Source: a bacterium (GTDB taxonomy: Bacteria; Zhuqueibacterota; Zhuqueibacteria; Residuimicrobiales; Krinioviventaceae). From it: a DNA stretch of 64,000 nt. The notes under the pieces were generated by a model. That model made no database searches. It was not told where the DNA came from and worked only from the letters and a program-made list of their open reading frames with translations. Below are positions 2,923 through 12,156 of the stretch, piece after piece (the stretch's first letter is position 1; every line of letters begins with the position of its first letter). The translations under genes and the position numbers were made by a program. The stretch spans positions 224,001 through 288,000 of the forward strand of contig CAXXMD010000002.1 of the NCBI GenBank assembly GCA_963675755.2. The letters run 5' to 3'.

Positions 2923-3627
2923 TTATTTAAATTGATAAATAATTTGCAAGCTCGTTTGATAGGCTTTATTTCTGCCAAAAATATCAAGATAATCATATTC
3001 AAAATGATATGCGTAACCGATATCCGGGGCATATTCGAATTGTAAACCTAATGACAGATTGTTGGCAATGGGGTATTGCAGGCTTGCTCCTGCTAGTGCT
3101 CCAAAGACGACAGATTGTATATCTTCTTTATATATATATACATAAAAATAATCTCCATTATATTGTTTGTCATCTGAGGTATATGTATCCGGAGTATATT
3201 TATATTTTTGAAAATAATCAAGTCTTGCGCCTGCCATAACATTGATTTTCAGTTTCTTTATTTCAAGTACTGTAACTTTTAAATAAACGGGAAAAGATAT
3301 ATAATCAAGACGGATTTCATCCTGTGCGGTTTTTAATATTTCAGGACCCGATTCACCCGTAACAATAAATTCATCCTTGTATCCTTTTTGAGTGTAATTT
3401 GCACCAAAACCAATCGCTAACCGGGGATGAATATGAGAAATTTCAACAAATAATCCGGCTGTTGAACCATTCTTCCAAATCATATCCCCTTTATAGTTTG
3501 CCAATTCATGATTTTGGTATTGATTGGAATATACCCAACCCAATGAGCCTCCAACATTTGCCGATGAAAAGCACTGTGAGACTGAAAAAACAATCAATAG
3601 CGATACAAAAATACTATTTTTTTTCAT
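2923..3627 (-). CDS. Outer-membrane beta-barrel protein (PorT/OmpA-like, probably 8 strands)
   Basis: Signal peptide from ATG 3627 (MKKNSIF...); YTQKG, RLDYISFPV motifs; C-terminal LQIIYQFK beta-signal. Confidence 0.75.
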   Translation of the reverse strand: MKKNSIFVSLLIVFSVSQCFSSANVGGSLGWVYSNQYQNHELANYKGDMIWKNGSTAGLFVEISHIHPRLAIGFGANYTQKGYKDEFIVTGESGPEILKTAQDEIRLDYISFPVYLKVTVLEIKKLKINVMAGARLDYFQKYKYTPDTYTSDDKQYNGDYFYVYIYKEDIQSVVFGALAGASLQYPIANNLSLGLQFEYAPDIGYAYHFEYDYLDIFGRNKAYQTSLQIIYQFK

Positions 3628-3699
3628 CCCGATTCCTGTTTTGAAATAATGATTTGAATTTATTGAAATCAAGATAGTAAAATTTAGGATAACCTGCCA

Positions 3700-3757: not shown

Positions 3758-5224
3758 CTATCTTACATCATAACGATTAAAAGCAATAAAAGCTCCGCTT
3801 ATACATAATGATGTGTATAATAACAGAACCATGATCTGTTTTAATGAGGGGAATAGTAGTGTAGACAATCTCGTTTTTCCAGGATTATATTCCGGTACAC
3901 CGCTAATGTCCAGGCTGGTATTTCGTCCCATTTCCAGTTTGAATCCTGCTTCAGAAGCTATAGTTACTCGTAATCCTGTTATACCGGTTTCTGATTTTTC
4001 TTTATTATCCAGATACTGATTTAATATGTTTTTATAGTCCTGCATGTTTTGTTCTGTACGTGATTTTAAATGAATATCCGTTTCTGCAACGTTGAGCATT
4101 AAAAGTTCAAATGCTGCGGCTGGCGATAGTTGGGCCAATGTAAAGGCAAGTTGTTCCTGTTCTCTTTTCTGGTTATAATATAGATTGTATTGAGCTGTTG
4201 AATACTCGTTGATATCTTTTTGATAATTTTTGCGTAAAGCATCTTCCTGTTCAATCCATTCCCACATGTGGTCATCCTGATAGATTTCTCGTTCAGAACG
4301 GTCCATATTTGTCATTTCAACATTCCGGATATTCCACATTTGTTCAAGCTCTTTGGTAAAGCTATCCCAGCGTTGTTTTGAATGGCCTTCTATTTGAGCG
4401 TCAATTTCAGCAACAGATGGCACCGGTTTTATTCTACCCGCAGCCATTACACCTATTCTGGGGATGATCAATACCAATGTGATCCAGATTATTAACAAGA
4501 GTAAGAAAGATGTTGAGGATTTTTGAGTTACTGATGATATAAACAAACCCATTGCAATAAAGAATACAAAATAAATCATTGTACTTGAGATCATGATGAT
4601 CATTCGAATCCACATATTGGAATCGAGCTGAATGTTAAATGCCATGATCAGTAATAAACTGATTAGAATTGATAAAATTACTGGTAATAACAATCCACTG
4701 CAGATTCCGGTAAATTTAGCTGTAATATATTGTTTTCTGGGAACAGCGTTTGCAAAAGTAAGCCGTAATGTGCCATTCTCTTTTTCACCGCTGATTGCGT
4801 CAAAAGAAAAGAGAATCGCAAAAAGAGATAACACAATAAGCACAAATCCTTTATAATCCAAATGTCTGAATACAGCAAAAATCGGATCATCGGAATAGGT
4901 ACTATGTTCGAGTTTAATGGGACTGGTACGATCTATGGAACTGTACCGGCCAATATCATTGGTGATTCCAGTTGTGAAAATTTTTAACGGATCGGGTTTA
5001 CGGTAAAGTGTCCGTTTGAAATGAGACCATGAACTCAGGCTGTTCATTTCTTCCAATGATAATTGTTCACCGGCATTGTACGATTGAATTGCGGACTGGT
5101 AATCCAGTATTCCTAGATAGATTGCCAGCATTAACAACAAGAGCGTTATTAAAAAAGTGAAAATGAATTTAGGTCCTGTTAGAATTGCTTTAAATTCCTT
5201 AATAAATATTGTTTTAAACATCAT
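3758..5224 (-). CDS. ABC-2 type exporter permease (paralog 2)
   Basis: N-terminal IFIKEF; FDAISGEKENGTLRLTFANAVPR...KF; about 6 TM helices with a long extracytoplasmic loop; ends YDVR. Confidence 0.88.
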   Translation of the reverse strand: MMFKTIFIKEFKAILTGPKFIFTFLITLLLLMLAIYLGILDYQSAIQSYNAGEQLSLEEMNSLSSWSHFKRTLYRKPDPLKIFTTGITNDIGRYSSIDRTSPIKLEHSTYSDDPIFAVFRHLDYKGFVLIVLSLFAILFSFDAISGEKENGTLRLTFANAVPRKQYITAKFTGICSGLLLPVILSILISLLLIMAFNIQLDSNMWIRMIIMISSTMIYFVFFIAMGLFISSVTQKSSTSFLLLLIIWITLVLIIPRIGVMAAGRIKPVPSVAEIDAQIEGHSKQRWDSFTKELEQMWNIRNVEMTNMDRSEREIYQDDHMWEWIEQEDALRKNYQKDINEYSTAQYNLYYNQKREQEQLAFTLAQLSPAAAFELLMLNVAETDIHLKSRTEQNMQDYKNILNQYLDNKEKSETGITGLRVTIASEAGFKLEMGRNTSLDISGVPEYNPGKTRLSTLLFPSLKQIMVLLLYTSLCISGAFIAFNRYDVR

Positions 5225-5236
5225 GTCCTCGGAAGT

Positions 5237-6652
5237 TTATCTGACGTCATATTTCAAAAATCCAATCAAGGCACCGGTAAAACAGAGTGCGTTGAGTACC
5301 AATAGAATTGACAGGTTAACAACAAATGGTTTTATATTTTGGTTAATGGAAACCGGTTGATAGACAAAGGCGGGCAATTCATTAATATCAATGGGTGGGG
5401 GCTGATTTTCTCCATCATCATTTATTTTCATCATTACGGTTCCCTGATCAAGTAATATACCTGTTTTCTCTTTCATAAACTGTTGATATACTGTTTGATA
5501 CCCCTGAACATTTTTGATAAAATTATTGTCCAGATCTAACGAAGTGCCTGAAATGGTTGAAACTGCTAAACCGAATAATGCTGCGGGAGAAATTCTGGCA
5601 ATACCCAACGCAATCCTTTTTTGTATTCCTTTTTTATTTTGCCTGTCTTCATTTAACCTGCCTGAAAAATCCATCAGCCTTTCATTTCTACTATCTCCAA
5701 GGTCTTGCATAAATTCTTGAAATTCCTGAATCATTTTTTCGGGATCTTGCGTGTTGATGGGATTAAATTGTGCCATTTTATTGCGATCTTCCTGTAACAA
5801 TTGGGACCTCAATCTGCTCTTTTGATAATCAAGGTAATCAACAGAGGGCACATTTACTGCTTTACCGGCAATAAGTACAGAAGCATTCGGTATGACAAAC
5901 ACAAACAATAACCACAATATAAGCATGGACAAAAAAGAAAGAGAAGGCTTGGGTAATACTATGGAGGCTAGAAAGGACAACAATTGAAAAAAATTAAAAT
6001 ATACAAGCCCGGCCAGTATTACCAGAAAGAGTTGTATCCATTCAGTTAATGAGAGTTCAATACCCATGAAAATCAGTATCAGGCAACCCAGCAACAAGGG
6101 AAGCATTAGTGGTAATGCAATGGCAAAAAAGGAACCGGTAATTTTACCAATAATATATTTGTCTTTGGGCACAGGGTTAGAAAAAGTCAATCTTAATGTC
6201 CCTTGTTGTTTTTCTCCATTTACCGCATCATAGGAGAACAATATGGCAAATATGGATAAAATGATTTGAAAGATAAATGTGAGATCCAGAAACCTGAAAA
6301 CAGCAAATAAAGGATCATTGCTGTACCGGCTATTTGCTGATGTCAATTCACCCCGGCTGAAAATTTCGGCTGACCGTCCAATGTCGTTTGATACTCCTGT
6401 AATAATGGATTCAAGGGGAGAGGGCGGTAAAAAAGCATGATGCCCCGTTACTTGTAACCAGTCAGTTAAACCGCTAAACTGTCGCAGGTTTTCAGCCTTT
6501 GCAGCATTATATTTATCCAGATTCATCTGATAGTTGGCTGCACCAATATAAAACGAAATAAGGATTAATACGGAGCAAACGGTAAATGTCCAAACAAATT
6601 TGCGTGTTTGTAAATGCTCCAACAGTTCTTTATAAATAATTGTTTTGATCAT
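5237..6652 (-). CDS. ABC-2 type exporter permease (paralog 1)
   Basis: IIYKEL; YDAVNGEKQQGTLRLTFSNPVPK; same topology as its neighbour; ends YDVR. Confidence 0.88.
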   Translation of the reverse strand: MIKTIIYKELLEHLQTRKFVWTFTVCSVLILISFYIGAANYQMNLDKYNAAKAENLRQFSGLTDWLQVTGHHAFLPPSPLESIITGVSNDIGRSAEIFSRGELTSANSRYSNDPLFAVFRFLDLTFIFQIILSIFAILFSYDAVNGEKQQGTLRLTFSNPVPKDKYIIGKITGSFFAIALPLMLPLLLGCLILIFMGIELSLTEWIQLFLVILAGLVYFNFFQLLSFLASIVLPKPSLSFLSMLILWLLFVFVIPNASVLIAGKAVNVPSVDYLDYQKSRLRSQLLQEDRNKMAQFNPINTQDPEKMIQEFQEFMQDLGDSRNERLMDFSGRLNEDRQNKKGIQKRIALGIARISPAALFGLAVSTISGTSLDLDNNFIKNVQGYQTVYQQFMKEKTGILLDQGTVMMKINDDGENQPPPIDINELPAFVYQPVSINQNIKPFVVNLSILLVLNALCFTGALIGFLKYDVR

Positions 6653-7405
6653 CTAGTTCTCCTGCACCTGATTGTTCTCCTTGAGAATATATTGTAAATA
6701 GAGTTGTTCAAGATCCTGCTGTTGCAATTCTTTTTTAGATTGCTCTGTTACAATTTTTCCCTTGCTCATAATTCCAACCATGTCTGCCATCTGTTTTGCT
6801 CTGAAAATATCATGAGTGGATATCAGGATCGCTTTACCTTCATCCTTCAATTCCAGTAACAAGTCGGTGAAATCATGGCCGGCTTTGGGGTCCAGCCCGG
6901 ATGTGGGTTCATCCAATACAATTGCAGGTGCGTTTTTCAGAATAGCTATTGCAATACCGCATTTTTGACGCATACCTTTGGAATAGTCACCCAGTTTACG
7001 ATTGTGGCTGCTTTTTTCCAAGCCGACTCTTTCCAGGGCTTCGTGATAATCTGATTTGGTATAGTAATCATGTCCACCGAGTTTTGAAAAATATTCCAGA
7101 TTTTGTATTGCACTGAAATTTGGATACAACATTACATTTTCAGAAACATATGCCAGTTTTTCTCTGGCACGTAGGGGATTTACATGTGTTTCAATTCCAT
7201 CTACCAGTGCTCTTCCATTTGTTGGTTCAATAAAGTTTAAAAAGATGTTTATTGTTGTAGATTTCCCGGCTCCGTTTGCTCCCAGCATGGCATAAATTTG
7301 TCCGGTATATATTTTGAATGAAACCTGATCAAGTGCAAGTACATCAGGTTCGTAAGCTTTTGTTAATGCGTCTGCTTCCAATAGAGGAGTATTAATATTT
7401 TCCAT
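6653..7405 (-). CDS. ABC transporter ATP-binding protein
   Basis: Walker A GANGAGKS, signature YSKGMRQ, Walker B IVLDEP, H-loop STH; ATG 7405 has a GAGG RBS (ORF open to 7417). Confidence 0.95.
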   Translation of the reverse strand: MENINTPLLEADALTKAYEPDVLALDQVSFKIYTGQIYAMLGANGAGKSTTINIFLNFIEPTNGRALVDGIETHVNPLRAREKLAYVSENVMLYPNFSAIQNLEYFSKLGGHDYYTKSDYHEALERVGLEKSSHNRKLGDYSKGMRQKCGIAIAILKNAPAIVLDEPTSGLDPKAGHDFTDLLLELKDEGKAILISTHDIFRAKQMADMVGIMSKGKIVTEQSKKELQQQDLEQLYLQYILKENNQVQEN

Positions 7406-7420
7406 AGTTAACCTCATTAT

Positions 7421-8911
7421 TTATCTTCGTGAAAGGCGAATTCCATAATAGATGATAACCGAGATGATTATCAGTATAAACAGGATGATGATCAAAGTTC
7501 CTGCTGTATTAGATCTTGCTTCTACCTGTACAATTACTGTTTTTTCTTCACCATATACAGGACGGTTGTCTGATAACGATGTGGATTTTATCCTGAATTC
7601 ATAGCGACCTGTACTAATCTCCTTCGTTGGCGTTAGGGTAATCCGTGTTTGTTTTTCATTACCTATTTCAAGTGATGGTGTTAATTCAGGATCAATGGAT
7701 TTGTCCCAGTTCATTGGTGTGTCTGCCTCCACCTTGATATTGTCAAGACGGCGAGACCCCTCATTAATTAGCTCAATATTAAAAGAAACCTGTTCCTCAG
7801 GTTTAATTGAGAAGTAGAGCATGGGAGCCCTTACCAAAAGTTTTCCAACACCGCGGGGTACAAGTTCCAATCGTACATAGCCAATATTCAGTGCTTCCAG
7901 TTCTTTATCATTCCAGATTTTATCAGAATCATTAAATTCACTGATCATGTTGCGGGGTACTGCAAGCACATAAAAGGGGATTGCCTGATCTATGACAATT
8001 TCATCAGATGGGCGATCAGGCATAAATACCTGTAATGCTGCTTGCCGGGTATTGGTGCTTTCAGTGAATTTGAACTGACTTAATCTCGCCTGACTAGCAG
8101 GATCCATAAAATAATGGTTAATCTGTTTGGGCAGATTCACAACCAAAAGTTTAAAAGTATTATTAACAGCACTAAACAATTCCAGAGTCAGATCAAGTGA
8201 TGCAGACTCGCCCAGTTCAACCTCTTGAGAGAATTGTTCAGATTGAACAATAACCTTGTTTTCGGATTCATCTTTTTGCAAAAAGATTTTAGGACTTCGT
8301 TGACTTCCATTGCTATATAAGAGATTTACCGTAACCGCATCCACATCCTGAAGTAAACCAAAGTCCAGCGTAATGGGTTTGCCGTACAAAAGCTGTTCAA
8401 TTTTTGCTTCATACGGTTGACTGATGATGGCATTGTCGTCATTCAAGAGTGAAACATAAACGTCATGTACTGTTTCCGGTTGCAGTGCGTTATAAAGATC
8501 ATCGTCAATGTTTAACAGCTTTTTAAACTCGGCTGTACCACCGGATGTATTTGCCAAAGTAATTTTGACTCGTTTTTGTCCGGTTTTGGATTGATACTTT
8601 ACCGCATTTTCTACACCCACATACTGATTTTCAAACAGGACGGCCAGCAGGGATTGCTGATAATTGACTTCAGCATCTGTCATTATATTTCTGGCGTTAT
8701 CCAGTTCCTGTTGAGATGTAAGGCCATTGTCAAACATGTCTTTGATTCGGTCGAACTGTTTCTTTGACATGTCATAGGCTTCTTTGGCCCGTTTTAATCC
8801 CAACAGCGTATATTGATCATCCCGTTGATTAAAATATGTCCCGGTTTGACTGAATGCGAGAGAGTACAGGATTAAGACGATTAAAAAATATTTAAATATT
8901 TGATTCGGCAT
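7421..8911 (-). CDS. Periplasmic accessory protein: MFP-like helical hairpin + Ig-like/NEW3 domains + C-terminal TM anchor
   Basis: Signal peptide; LKRAKEAYDMSKKQFDRIKDMFDNGLTSQQELDNAR hairpin; NEW3-like N.G...L.NI....TP.NW...L..G...TP....GRY; hydrophobic C-terminal helix followed by RLSRR. Confidence 0.7.
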   Translation of the reverse strand: MPNQIFKYFLIVLILYSLAFSQTGTYFNQRDDQYTLLGLKRAKEAYDMSKKQFDRIKDMFDNGLTSQQELDNARNIMTDAEVNYQQSLLAVLFENQYVGVENAVKYQSKTGQKRVKITLANTSGGTAEFKKLLNIDDDLYNALQPETVHDVYVSLLNDDNAIISQPYEAKIEQLLYGKPITLDFGLLQDVDAVTVNLLYSNGSQRSPKIFLQKDESENKVIVQSEQFSQEVELGESASLDLTLELFSAVNNTFKLLVVNLPKQINHYFMDPASQARLSQFKFTESTNTRQAALQVFMPDRPSDEIVIDQAIPFYVLAVPRNMISEFNDSDKIWNDKELEALNIGYVRLELVPRGVGKLLVRAPMLYFSIKPEEQVSFNIELINEGSRRLDNIKVEADTPMNWDKSIDPELTPSLEIGNEKQTRITLTPTKEISTGRYEFRIKSTSLSDNRPVYGEEKTVIVQVEARSNTAGTLIIILFILIIISVIIYYGIRLSRR

Positions 8912-8922
8912 TGAGCTTCTCG

Positions 8923-9684
8923 TTATTTATTAATAATGATATTGTCTTTGATTTCTGGTTTAATAAAAGAGACTCTAGTAGTTTTATCTTTATTTTTAAA
9001 TAAAAGTGTAACTTGCTCTCCAATCTTGATTTTGGAATAGAGTGCATCAAAATCCATTTTGTTGTTAACAGTATTATCGTTAATGGAAAGTAATTGACAA
9101 CCGGGTTCTATCTTTGTATCACCCAGAATAGTATGCGCGTGTGGCAGCACGTCAAATACAGTCAAAATATTATTGTTTTCTTCCAGCACTAATCCTTCGC
9201 CTGCAAGGATAATGAGATTCTCTGCGCCTTTGAGTACGACTTGCTCATTGTCGCCCATATCATCAGAAGGTGTTTTATCCTGAATGATCATTACACGTTT
9301 TCCATCTTGTTTTTGTAAATCCATTTTTTTGAATGCAATCATGAGCATTTGTCCGTCTCGTTGTATTCCCATTTTTACTTCTGATTCCGGATCCAGCGAA
9401 TCATAAATATTTTTAATTTCAGAAGCGCTTTTGACTCTTTTTTTGTTTACCATCAATATCGTATCATCTTGATCAAGTTTAATTTCACGATATTCTTCAG
9501 GGCGGGTTTCTGAGGGTAAAAGATTTGCAATTTTGACAGTATTGTTTTCACCTGATAATACAATCCCTAATTCCGGTAACATGAAAATGTCATCACCTGT
9601 AATTTCAATTTTTTTCATATGTACCTGAGCCAGCAGGGTAACGCATTGTATAAGGATGATCAGTGTTGATATTGTTCTTTTCAT
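8923..9684 (-). CDS. Secreted protein with two PDZ-like domains
   Basis: Signal peptide; two repeats (ELGIVL...LDQDDTILMVN...VKMGIQRDG and EGLVL...IEPGCQLLSIND...GEQVTL); RBS AAGGAG; no protease domain. Confidence 0.7.
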   Translation of the reverse strand: MKRTISTLIILIQCVTLLAQVHMKKIEITGDDIFMLPELGIVLSGENNTVKIANLLPSETRPEEYREIKLDQDDTILMVNKKRVKSASEIKNIYDSLDPESEVKMGIQRDGQMLMIAFKKMDLQKQDGKRVMIIQDKTPSDDMGDNEQVVLKGAENLIILAGEGLVLEENNNILTVFDVLPHAHTILGDTKIEPGCQLLSINDNTVNNKMDFDALYSKIKIGEQVTLLFKNKDKTTRVSFIKPEIKDNIIINK

Positions 9685-9826: not shown

Positions 9827-11452
9827 ATGGAAAAAAAACACATACAATTTGGGATCTTTGCTCTCATTATTCTGTCTTTTATAGGATTGGCAGGATTACA
9901 GCTTTATTTGTATAATCACAATAAAGAGCTTGAAAAGCAGTCTTTTGATAATATTGTGGAAAATTCACTCGGTCTGATAGTGAAAAAGATAGAAGCGCTG
10001 GATATAGCTGGCAATATAATACAAATGACTCGTGACGATTCCATGTATCACAAAATTATCAAAATTGATTCCTGTGATACCATGATAACCCGAATAAAGC
10101 ATATGAATGGGATAGTTGATACTACAGTTGAAATGCACATCATTTCCGCATACGATTCGCTTGATACCCTTGTTGATCCCCAGGGAGGAAATGCTGCTGG
10201 TACCTTTATTTATAAATTTGAAAAATCAATCTCAGACAGCACAATGATTTTGGATCATGACAGCATGAATGTGATGATCAAGATTGCGTCAGATGGGAAT
10301 AACAATCAAATAAATGCCAATGTTGATTTGAATGACCGCAAGCTAATGATTGAAAAAGTTGTGAATGATTTGACTTTTCTGAAAGCCAAACCTGTAATGG
10401 AAAGAATTCAACCAGCTGTTCTGGATTCAATTATAAAAATAACGTTGACTCAAAATTCGCTAAATCTAAATTATACATTTGGAATACTTGATACTCGTAA
10501 AGATTCTCTGTTATTTAAAAGCCCTGGGTTTGATCCCGGCTATATAACCAAAGCATATAAAAAGCAGTTGTTCCCGAATGATCTGTTGCCCGTACCTGCA
10601 CAGTTGTGTGTGTATTTCCCTAACCAGGGTTCATTTTTATTCAAGCGGTCTGGTACCTGGATACTCACAACCTTGTTTTTTATTCTTGTACTCGTATCCA
10701 GTTTTGTTTATTTGACTGGATTGCTATTCAGGCAGAAACAGTTTTTTAATCATATAGTGAATTTTATCAACAACATGACGCACGAGTTTAAAACTCCAAT
10801 TTCAACATTATCTCTTGTTGGCGAGGCACTCAAAAGCCCGGATAATATTGGCAATCATGAAAAATTATCACGCTACAGTCAGGTTGTTGATGACGAAACT
10901 TTACGCATGAGAAACCAAGTAGAAAAAATATTACAAATGGCAGCTTTGGAAAGTGGTAACGTTGAACTGAATAACAAGGGTGTTTCAATTCATCAAATAA
11001 TGAACAAGCTTGTTAAAAAGTATCAGATTGTTCAGGAGAAAGGTGCTGTAAATTTACAGATCAAGCTTGATGCCAATCAGGATAGTGTACTTGGTGATCC
11101 TGTACATTTGATGAATGTTTTTGATAACCTGGTGGACAATGCGATAAAATACAACAACAATACTCCGGATATTCATATTACCACCTATAATGACCCTAAA
11201 AGTATTACAATTATATTTCAGGATAATGGTATAGGTATATCTTCTCAAGATCAAAAGTTAATTTTCGATACCTATTACCGGGTACCCACAGGCAATGTGC
11301 ATGATGTTAAGGGTTTTGGATTGGGATTGAGTTATGTAAAACGTATTATAGAATTACTGCATGGCGACATACGAGTCAAAAGTCAGTTGGGTAAAGGCAC
11401 TCAGTTTGAAATAATTTTGCCATTGCAGATAGAAAATGCCAGGGATATATGA
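9827..11452 (+). CDS. Membrane sensor histidine kinase
   Basis: Two TM helices; H-box NMTHEFKTPI; N-box NLVDNAIKY; G1 DNGIG; G2 GFGLGL. Confidence 0.96.
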   Translation: MEKKHIQFGIFALIILSFIGLAGLQLYLYNHNKELEKQSFDNIVENSLGLIVKKIEALDIAGNIIQMTRDDSMYHKIIKIDSCDTMITRIKHMNGIVDTTVEMHIISAYDSLDTLVDPQGGNAAGTFIYKFEKSISDSTMILDHDSMNVMIKIASDGNNNQINANVDLNDRKLMIEKVVNDLTFLKAKPVMERIQPAVLDSIIKITLTQNSLNLNYTFGILDTRKDSLLFKSPGFDPGYITKAYKKQLFPNDLLPVPAQLCVYFPNQGSFLFKRSGTWILTTLFFILVLVSSFVYLTGLLFRQKQFFNHIVNFINNMTHEFKTPISTLSLVGEALKSPDNIGNHEKLSRYSQVVDDETLRMRNQVEKILQMAALESGNVELNNKGVSIHQIMNKLVKKYQIVQEKGAVNLQIKLDANQDSVLGDPVHLMNVFDNLVDNAIKYNNNTPDIHITTYNDPKSITIIFQDNGIGISSQDQKLIFDTYYRVPTGNVHDVKGFGLGLSYVKRIIELLHGDIRVKSQLGKGTQFEIILPLQIENARDI

Positions 11453-12156
11453 CAAAAAAAATTAACATATTAATTGTTGATGATGATCCGAATTTGGGTT
11501 TTATATTACAGGAATCCCTTGAAGCTCAAGGATATGAGCTAATACGTTGTGATAATGGTGCAGATGCGCTTGAAGCATATATCAAGAATACATTTGATCT
11601 CTGTTTGATTGATATTATGCTGCCCAGGATGGATGGGTTTAGTCTGGCAAAAGAGATCCGTAATATTGATAAACAGGTTCCTATCATTTTTCTTACCGCA
11701 AAATCTCTCAAAGAAGACAAGATTGAAGGTTTCAAAATTGGTGCGGATGATTATGTGACCAAACCCTTTAGCATGGAAGAACTGCAATTACGTATATCTG
11801 CTGTATTACGTCGAACACAAAATTTAATTGATGATTCAAATGAATCTATTTTCACAATAGGTAAATTTACATTCTACTATTCCGAACAGATTTTGAAATA
11901 CCGTAGAAAATCTCTTAAACTTACCTTAAAAGAATCAGAACTATTGTACCTGTTATGCAAACATCGTGATAAATATCTGGCTCGTGAATTTGCGTTGCAA
12001 TACATCTGGAATGATGAAAGTTATTTTTCCGGGCGCAGTATGGATGTTTATATTACAAAGCTGCGAAAATATCTTCAGGATGATGAGCGAATTGAAATCC
12101 GTAATTTGCATGGTAAAGGCTTTAAGCTGATCGTTCCTGATTCCACATCACATTGA
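11449..12156 (+). CDS. OmpR/PhoB-family response regulator
   Basis: ILIVDDD, DIMLP, FLTA, KPF; winged-helix RSMDVYITKLRK...GKGF; ATGA overlap with the kinase. Confidence 0.96.
   Translation: MTKKINILIVDDDPNLGFILQESLEAQGYELIRCDNGADALEAYIKNTFDLCLIDIMLPRMDGFSLAKEIRNIDKQVPIIFLTAKSLKEDKIEGFKIGADDYVTKPFSMEELQLRISAVLRRTQNLIDDSNESIFTIGKFTFYYSEQILKYRRKSLKLTLKESELLYLLCKHRDKYLAREFALQYIWNDESYFSGRSMDVYITKLRKYLQDDERIEIRNLHGKGFKLIVPDSTSH

Follow-up and report, generated by a model that had tools for sequence, protein, structure and literature searches.

The gene considered here lies on the reverse strand of a 64,000-nucleotide stretch of DNA (the window) from a bacterium of the Zhuqueibacterota (assembly GCA_963675755.2, contig CAXXMD010000002.1, positions 224,001 to 288,000), between a gene for a secreted PDZ protein and the gene for the ATPase of an ATP-binding cassette (ABC) transporter of the ABC-2 type. 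It encodes a 496-residue protein bearing a 60-residue antiparallel α-hairpin that resembles the hairpins of membrane fusion proteins (MFPs), the canonical adaptors of TolC-dependent pumps, at the level of profile and fold only. The hairpin stands at the N terminus of a stalk of immunoglobulin (Ig)-like domains that ends in a transmembrane (TM) helix. We lean, by somewhat more than an even chance, toward the view that the protein serves an ABC-2 exporter, itself controlled by a two-component system, as a periplasmic adaptor of non-canonical type that is anchored at its C terminus. The features of the gene are listed below with the evidence for each, which includes an AlphaFold2 (AF2) model and structural comparison with VIA.

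7421..8911, minus strand: whole gene for the hairpin-Ig-Ig-NEW3-TM protein, 496 residues, with the stop codon at 7421-7423 (open reading frame list)
8849..8911, minus strand: signal peptide, residues 1-21, predicted cut between AFS and Q (hydrophobic N terminus; A/S-Q junction kept in the alignment of close homologues)
8729..8809, minus strand: hairpin helix 1, residues 35-61, including R55 (8747-8749) and M59 (8735-8737) (AF2 model; superposition on MexA)
8714..8728, minus strand: hairpin tip loop NGLTS, residues 62-66, with S66 at 8714-8716 (AF2 model; conservation)
8630..8713, minus strand: hairpin helix 2, residues 67-94 (alignment; AF2 model)
8270..8620, minus strand: β-sandwich domain 1, residues 98-214 (AF2 model; predicted edge-strand contacts between copies)
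7892..8260, minus strand: β-sandwich domain 2, residues 218-340 (AF2 model; tandem Ig/PapD-like structural alignments over residues 96-466)
7514..7882, minus strand: NEW3 (NPCBM-associated) domain, residues 344-466 (Pfam PF10633; VIA)
7424..7507, minus strand: C-terminal TM helix (469-491) and basic tail RLSRR (492-496) (sequence; AF2 helix 469-495)

The AF2 model was built with a 74-row homologue alignment (24-64% identity), which also underlies the family profile used below. It has a mean predicted local distance difference test score (pLDDT) of 92.1 and a predicted template modeling score (pTM) of 0.72, with pLDDT above 90 in the hairpin helices; a fold from the single sequence was unusable (pLDDT 42.7). 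In the model, a helix (residues 35-61), a loop (62-66), and a second helix (67-94) are followed by three β-rich units (98-214, 218-340, and 344-466) and by the TM helix (469-495). Residues 39-86, right behind the signal peptide, read LKRAKEAYDMSKKQFDRIKDMFDNGLTSQQELDNARNIMTDAEVNYQQ (nucleotides 8654-8797), and the DAEVNYQQSLLAVLFE segment of helix 2 is almost invariant in the alignment of the close branch of the family. The signal-peptide cut was placed from the sequence and the alignment rather than by a predictor. The residue after it is a glutamine in the window protein (junction at 8846-8851) and in most close homologues (A/S-Q), a pattern known for secreted Bacteroidota proteins. There is no lipobox cysteine at the N terminus, and the only other hydrophobic helix is the C-terminal one at 469-491. 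β-Sandwich domain 1 has a weak Pfam match to Ig_GlcNase, under the cut-off (residues 103-169, E = 5.4e-4), whereas the NEW3 match lies above the PF10633 gathering score (46.2 bits versus 24.4, E = 5.3e-12, residues 370-442), and the modeled NEW3 domain aligns with NEW3-type domains of glycosidases and a sialidase (VIA Z 12.1-12.6). A basic tail of the RLSRR type is common to the alignments of both family branches. Only about 13 residues separate the predicted cut from helix 1, so there is no room for the N-terminal halves of lipoyl, β-barrel, and membrane-proximal (MP) domains, and residues 96-466 align with Ig/PapD-like and NEW3 domains. An earlier, sequence-only reading of this DNA had described an Ig/NEW3-rich stalk behind the hairpin, a C-terminal TM helix with a basic tail, and an absence of MFP lipoyl and β-barrel domains; all three features are borne out, the stalk comprising three β-sandwich domains of which the last is NEW3.

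That reading had also assigned the segment behind the signal peptide to the HlyD/MFP type of α-hairpin, and here too the assignment holds. Residues 32-96 of the model superpose over 65 residues on the hairpins of MexA (1vf7; Z 10.6, root mean square deviation 1.4 Å), of the Bacteroides protein 4l8j (Z 10.9, 1.5 Å, 20% identity), and of a MacA-MexA chimera (4dk1; Z 9.8, 1.7 Å), although helical matches under about Z 13 may be common arrangements; these three are the only entries covering the hairpin among the 50 VIA matches listed. The NCBIfam models MdtN, CzcB/NccB, RND_mfp, HlyD, and DevB match residues 39-104 solely at their hairpin positions (E = 8e-5 to 0.07), with scores far under the curated cut-offs (TIGR01730, 15.3 versus 94.9 bits; MdtN, 21.6 versus 376; CzcB, 20.2 versus 319; HlyD, 13.1 versus 393; DevB, 12.4 versus 129). 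When the family profile was compared with all Protein Data Bank (PDB) sequences, positions 28-100 matched ten adaptor sequences, namely a fused TriAB (E = 4.9e-4), 4l8j (7.9e-4), ZneB (5.7e-3), three MacA proteins, MexJ, the MacA-MexA chimera, and two AcrA proteins. The only non-adaptors matched there were ataxin-3 (E = 1.3) and CmeC (E = 5.6), an outer-membrane factor (OMF), and the other listed matches of the profile fall in the NEW3 domain or are to ribosomal protein L16 at E > 1. With hhalign, the hairpin sub-alignment matched a MAFFT alignment of 18 canonical MFPs drawn from the genome of the window at a probability of 96.7% (E = 3e-10, 49 columns), and the match to 14 OMFs of that genome was weaker (85.5%); with the hairpin rows reversed, the value fell to 0.1% for MFPs and OMFs alike. 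The window protein has no match to the TolC-family model OEP (PF02321) at E ≤ 0.1, and its homologues give single OEP matches below threshold (13.8-20.2 bits versus 22) that are confined to the hairpin. PF25876 and PF25893, which we take to be MFP hairpin families and have not used as evidence, are annotated on 31 of the 120 listed homologues and not on the window protein.

In the AF2 model, R55, M59, and S66 lie at the tip of the hairpin, and they satisfy the pattern R-x3-[LM]-x6-[ST]. In one report (PMC3391258), the motif of the hairpin tip is given as RxxxLxxxxxxS for MacA, AcrA, and MexA and as RLT for HlyD, and mutations in it are described as weakening TolC binding; a second (PMC4446572) gives the motif a role in TolC binding and its conservation as not absolute. 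The corresponding residues are conserved in the branch of the family to which the window protein belongs, sampled as 80 loci from genome assemblies (R in 76/80, L or M in 78/80, S or T in 76/80), where non-conservation of R and S would have told against the sequence-only reading. In the wider family alignment the counts are 51/74, 71/74, and 58/74, respectively. The R/L/S positions are also in register with those of the canonical MFPs in the hhalign comparison. A longer signature, which adds a hydrophobic pair before the serine and an acidic residue after it, is found in 9 of 3300 long open reading frames (ORFs) of the genome. The bare spacing occurs in 717 of the same 3300 and in 11 of the 18 canonical MFPs, and 32% of 2000 shuffles of the window protein reproduce it, so that it is not significant in itself.

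The protein could instead be a generic anchored Ig stalk of the COG1470/NEW3 type, acting as a spacer, a fence, or a substrate-capture arm, in which the coiled coil serves as an oligomerization handle and its MFP likeness is convergent. A Foldseek search of the PDB with the whole model finds only generic multi-Ig stalks (integrin α legs, hydin, and titin), which are functionally uninformative; coiled-coil hairpins are matched easily; and the tip spacing, as just described, is common by chance. A phmmer search of the PDB with residues 23-110 alone returned nothing significant, the best match being an unrelated splicing protein (E = 0.066), followed by TriAB (1.3) and CmeC (2.8). We nevertheless regard this explanation as distinctly improbable, because convergence would have to yield the length of the hairpin (65 of 65 residues on MexA), its profile, and the register of its tip.

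A prediction of four copies of residues 23-214, comprising the hairpin and the first Ig-like domain, gave an interface score (ipSAE) of 0.43 (0.43, 0.53, and 0.36 in separate runs) as compared with 0.00 for the best of three controls. Among 30 proteins with a solved structure of two copies of one chain, 20 attain the mark of 0.42, and among 23 solved as a single chain, 1 does; the margin here is narrow, four copies with a custom alignment are unlike the calibration, and the prediction may recall solved MFP hexamers. Contact agreement among the runs was at least 80%, with a partner pLDDT of at least 75. In the predicted interface, helix 1 (residues 28-48) packs against helix 2 of the neighbor (71-90), and the edge strands of the first Ig-like domain (207-212) contact residues 156-168 and 187-188. 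The predicted packing is parallel and side by side with the tip left free, the same geometry as in MFP funnels.

Of 8000 candidates that were scored, more than 1350 are homologues at E ≤ 0.001, and they fall into 468 cluster representatives; the top 120 are 56-66% identical to the window protein. The 80 loci of the window branch are labeled as KSB1/Zhuqueibacterota, Calditrichota, Ignavibacteriota, Bacteroidota (including Rhodothermales), Zixibacteria, Krumholzibacteriota, and Acidobacteriota, and the homologues as a whole belong to these groups and to further ones. The module conserved over them comprises a histidine kinase and response regulator pair and, in the opposite orientation in the window, a PDZ gene, the hairpin gene, an ABC ATPase gene, and genes for two NosY-like ABC-2 permeases. 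Its other members in the window are as follows.

8923..9684, minus strand: secreted tandem-PDZ protein, 253 residues, upstream of the hairpin gene (Pfam PDZ_2, E = 8.2e-14, two stretches)
6653..7417, minus strand: ABC ATPase, 254 residues, DrrA/GldA-like (family searches)
5237..6652, minus strand: ABC-2 permease A, 471 residues, with large periplasmic insertions, DUF3526-like (Pfam ABC2_membrane_2, E = 6.5e-27)
3758..5224, minus strand: ABC-2 permease B, 488 residues (Pfam ABC2_membrane_2, E = 6.4e-32; DUF3526, E = 1e-6)
9827..11452, plus strand: histidine kinase, 541 residues, divergent (HisKA and HATPase_c)
11449..12156, plus strand: OmpR-type response regulator, 235 residues (Response_reg and Trans_reg_C)

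Where the surrounding sequence allowed evaluation, the ABC ATPase gene is downstream in 74/74 loci and the permease genes in 61/62, the PDZ gene is upstream in 64/72, and the histidine kinase and the OmpR-type regulator are present in 48/56 and 47/56. The only solved relative of both permeases is NosY (7o0y; E = 2.6e-7 for A and 6.3e-9 for B). Some operons of the window branch contain inserted genes for serine hydrolases of the β-lactamase family (PF00144), S41 peptidases, and a protein of the metallo-β-lactamase fold, positioned between the PDZ and hairpin genes or between the ATPase gene and that of permease A (L009:8315-9916, L016:8416-9891, L019:8118-9845, L024:3995-5476, L021:12376-13881, L010:8526-10121, L016:12567-14129, L031:12553-14463, and L040:6936-8468). 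The ATPase of the window has the signature YSKGM in place of LSGGQ, but its Walker motifs, GANGAGKS (A) and IVLDEP (B), are normal. This type of signature variant is usual in ATPases of DrrA/ABC-2 type transporters and is probably not a defect. Directly downstream of permease B is an outer-membrane β-barrel gene (2923..3672, minus strand, 249 residues; Pfam OMP_b-brl_2, E = 3.3e-12), which probably does not belong to the module, being conserved at that place in only 1 of the 80 loci, the near-identical L002. Two database proteins read by sequence as fusions, P0210 (892 residues) of a permease with NEW3 and P0147 (741 residues) of PDZ with NEW3. Both may be artefacts of gene calling, P0210 lacking the first TM segment of the permease, and they are weak hints only.

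The long helical periplasmic insertions of both permeases offer another partner for the hairpin, which could dock on these DUF3526-like regions while the protein folds back as a lid or regulator. The constant linkage of the family to ABC-2 permeases fits such an arrangement, as does the apparent permease-NEW3 fusion P0210, with its seemingly truncated N terminus. Folding back would be awkward, however, for a protein whose anchor and hairpin are separated by three rigid Ig-like domains, and the predicted self-contacts use the sides of the hairpin and keep its tip free; we consider this possibility very doubtful.

A second branch of the family, more distant from the window protein (100-290 bits), was sampled as 74 metagenome loci retrieved by patterns within the long homologues P0150, P0148, P0146, and P0217. 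Its members retain the hairpin, with an insertion of seven residues in helix 2. A TolC-family ORF adjoins the gene on the same strand, within 400 nucleotides, in 53 of the 74 loci (52 by phmmer, and L123 by Pfam), and, of the 40 loci whose flanking sequence extends 1.5 kb or more on both sides, in 38; the two exceptions are L092, in which the channel gene is 2.5 kb away and within the cluster, and L109. All 10 of the adjoining ORFs tested contain two repeats of the Pfam family OEP (E = 1e-29 to 1e-41). In none of the 74 loci is there an ORF with a canonical MFP as its best match, although the same 18 queries found MFPs in three loci of the window branch, and no MFP is present among the 10 unassigned ORFs within the clusters, which encode LamG-domain proteins, ECF sigma factors, a LuxR regulator, a peroxiredoxin-like protein, a further OEP protein, and two proteins without a family. 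The clusters contain an ABC ATPase gene and several pairs of ABC-2 permease genes, up to about 10 of the latter in tandem, and a PDZ gene is found in 0/74. The presence of an adjoining TolC gene without a canonical adaptor gives independent support to the adaptor idea: in these ABC-2/TolC clusters, the family occupies the position expected of an adaptor. A stalk that served only as a spacer or capture arm would leave the adjacency in these 53 loci unexplained. In three loci, a gene for a LamG/concanavalin-like protein of 582-1553 residues comes right after the adaptor gene (L099:11675-16333, L107:1748-4909, and L112:11377-13122); it is possible that these proteins are cargo or accessory proteins.

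A number of observations weigh against the adaptor interpretation, in addition to the empty single-sequence search, the chance frequency of the tip spacing, and the limits given above for the superpositions and the four-copy prediction. In the window branch itself, a TolC-family gene is adjacent in 0/80 loci; one is present within 10 kb in three (L038, L061, and L062), two of which (L038 and L061) also carry a canonical MFP. When the genome of the window was searched for an orthologue of the channels of the distant branch, none stood out, the matches being of only 20-45 bits and spread over six MFP-linked OMFs. At position 55, the distant, channel-linked branch has D or N in 48 of 56 aligned sequences and R in only 1 of 56. 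Finally, the PDZ protein gained by the window branch, together with the serine hydrolases of some loci, could mean that the protein has another job there.

That other job might be mechanical, the protein being a mechanotransmission arm, like NosD or EnvC, that is moved by the ABC-2 motor without any channel and whose hairpin would act on a partner in the periplasm, for instance the PDZ protein, the serine hydrolases, or the S41 peptidases. NosD on NosFY and the coiled coil of EnvC on FtsEX are periplasmic arms moved by an ABC motor. The relation of both permeases to NosY and to no other solved structure, the lack of OMF linkage in the window branch, and the PDZ gene, which is upstream in most loci of this branch and missing from the distant one, all fit such an arm, as do the hydrolase, peptidase, and metallo-β-lactamase-fold genes inserted in some operons and P0147, if it is a PDZ-NEW3 fusion and not a merged gene call. 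An arm of this kind is less easily reconciled with a hairpin match that is specific to MFP hairpins and has its tip in register, with a tip R/L/S triad that is best kept in precisely the window branch, or with the OMF linkage of the sister branch, and we judge it rather unlikely.

The loss of the tip arginine bears on the adaptor interpretation in another way. Because the channel-linked branch lacks it, the argument from R-x3-L-x6-S is weak on its own; the remaining tip positions of that branch have L at 59 in 56/57 and S or T at 66 in 39/57. The earlier description of the tip as RLS-like is therefore retained as to spacing, location, conservation in the window branch, and MFP register, but not as a distinguishing mark, since the spacing is common by chance and the arginine is gone where an OMF is linked. 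Arginine at the tip runs inverse to channel linkage in the two samples, being kept in the unlinked branch (76/80) and replaced by D or N in the linked one (48/56); L109, which belongs to the distant set, is channel-unlinked, and has a gene order like that of the window, retains R. One reading is that adaptors with a dedicated channel have co-evolved away from the canonical tip, whereas those that depend on a channel in common use would retain the tip of ordinary MFPs.

The genome of the window offers channels that could be shared: outside the module, its TolC-family genes number at least 14 and its canonical MFPs about 18. Two of these TolC-family genes have no canonical adaptor nearby (G000:C1:22186-23673 and G000:C2:2431592-2432974). 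One stands behind a pair of genes for a histidine kinase and an OmpR-type response regulator, and the other beside genes for a Wzz/GNVR tyrosine-kinase co-polymerase and an SLBB protein. Inspection of both gene neighborhoods found no link between the module and these two candidate free channels.

In the adaptor model that we favor, the secreted protein would stay tied to the inner membrane through its C-terminal helix. The TM helix and NEW3 domain would rest against the heterodimer of permeases A and B, and NEW3 and the two Ig-like domains would form a stalk beside or around the large periplasmic domains of the permeases, with the N-terminal MFP-type hairpin at its distal end. Several copies could pack helix 1 against helix 2 of the next copy, so that the hairpins make up all or part of a barrel, and the tips of this barrel may meet a TolC-family channel whose gene lies in another part of the genome. 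Movements of the ABC-2 permeases driven by ATP would then push the substrate across the outer membrane, and the histidine kinase and response regulator pair would switch the pump on. Of these steps, we infer permease binding, the oligomeric state, channel docking in the window branch, the direction of transport, and the nature of the substrate. An Ig domain is about 40 Å long, a 27-residue hairpin about 40 Å, and the periplasmic barrel of TolC about 100 Å. With these dimensions, three Ig domains and the hairpin would measure roughly 160 Å and, together with a TolC barrel, would span the periplasm. As the PDZ protein and the hydrolases of some operons hint at a substrate that is peptide-like or processed, we speculate that it is a peptide-like envelope compound, or that the PDZ protein and hydrolases process one.

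The sequence-only reading had called the protein a topologically inverted periplasmic adaptor, a view that the analysis bears out in part. In favor of an adaptor are the hairpin, the operon, and the TolC linkage of the distant branch; against it stand the absence of such linkage in the branch of the protein itself and the loss of the arginine where a channel is linked. "Inverted" is apt for the anchor, which is C-terminal rather than N-terminal, but not for the hairpin, whose direction would be the same as in ordinary adaptors, away from the inner membrane. A broader proposal, to which we give even chances, is that the family is a large, so far undescribed class of single-pass, C-terminally anchored Ig-stalk adaptors that have only the hairpin of an MFP and replace the canonical adaptor in ABC-2/TolC pumps. 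One lineage would have its own channel and a diverged tip, and the other, to which the window gene belongs, would have the PDZ protein, the two-component switch, the R-L-S tip, and a shared channel.

To our knowledge, every textbook tripartite pump has an adaptor of one architecture, in which lipoyl, barrel, and MP domains are arranged around the hairpin. Literature searches, for which supplements and subscription journals were out of reach, found no description of this protein class or module, and the accessible part of a 2026 review of adaptors (PMC13328181) mentions none of the terms Ig-like, immunoglobulin, atypical, non-canonical, ABC-2, and C-terminal transmembrane. If the adaptor model is correct, the hairpin would be a portable module for docking on channels, NosY-like ABC-2 transporters could be connected to TolC channels, and surveys of adaptors based on MFP models would overlook a widespread class. 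The unlinked branch with the arginine and the linked branch without it form a natural test of the purpose of the RLS motif.

Among known systems, NosDFY also couples an ABC-2 motor to a dedicated periplasmic partner, and NosY is a relative of both permeases. NosD is a soluble β-helix protein that, unlike the window protein, has no hairpin, Ig stalk, anchor, or channel partner. The capsule-export system KpsMT-KpsE-KpsD resembles the proposed model in outline: a helical co-polymerase, oligomeric and anchored, bridges the periplasm between an ABC-2 exporter and an outer-membrane protein. KpsE, however, has two TM helices and neither an Ig stalk nor an MFP hairpin, and at the outer membrane it is partnered by an outer-membrane polysaccharide export (OPX) protein, not TolC; no sequence link to this system was seen in the searches of this analysis. 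Membrane proteins of the NEW3/COG1470 type share a C-terminal NEW3 domain followed by a TM helix, although that name covers one domain and is silent on the hairpin, the ABC-2 operon, the TolC linkage, and function. The closest comparison is with the adaptors MacA (of MacA-MacB-TolC), AcrA, MexA, HlyD, and DevB, with which the window protein shares a hairpin of MexA length, an R-x3-L-x6-S tip in register, and a gene encoded with an ABC transporter. As in tripartite pumps, a TolC-family gene stands alongside in the distant branch, and the hairpins are predicted to pack side by side. The differences from MFPs lie in the rest of the molecule. In MFPs, each of the lipoyl, β-barrel, and MP domains consists of an N-terminal and a C-terminal half that flank the hairpin, whereas the window protein lacks these domains, has its hairpin at a free N terminus, and has in their place a linear stalk of three Ig-like domains. 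Its anchor is a C-terminal TM helix, as compared with an N-terminal lipid or TM helix in MFPs, and its transporter is a NosY-like ABC-2 heterodimer, as compared with the MacB/FtsX type in MacA-MacB-TolC. The window protein is thus MFP-like in the respects tested, namely the hairpin, the tip, the linkage to a transporter, and the predicted side-by-side packing, yet it falls outside the MFP family.

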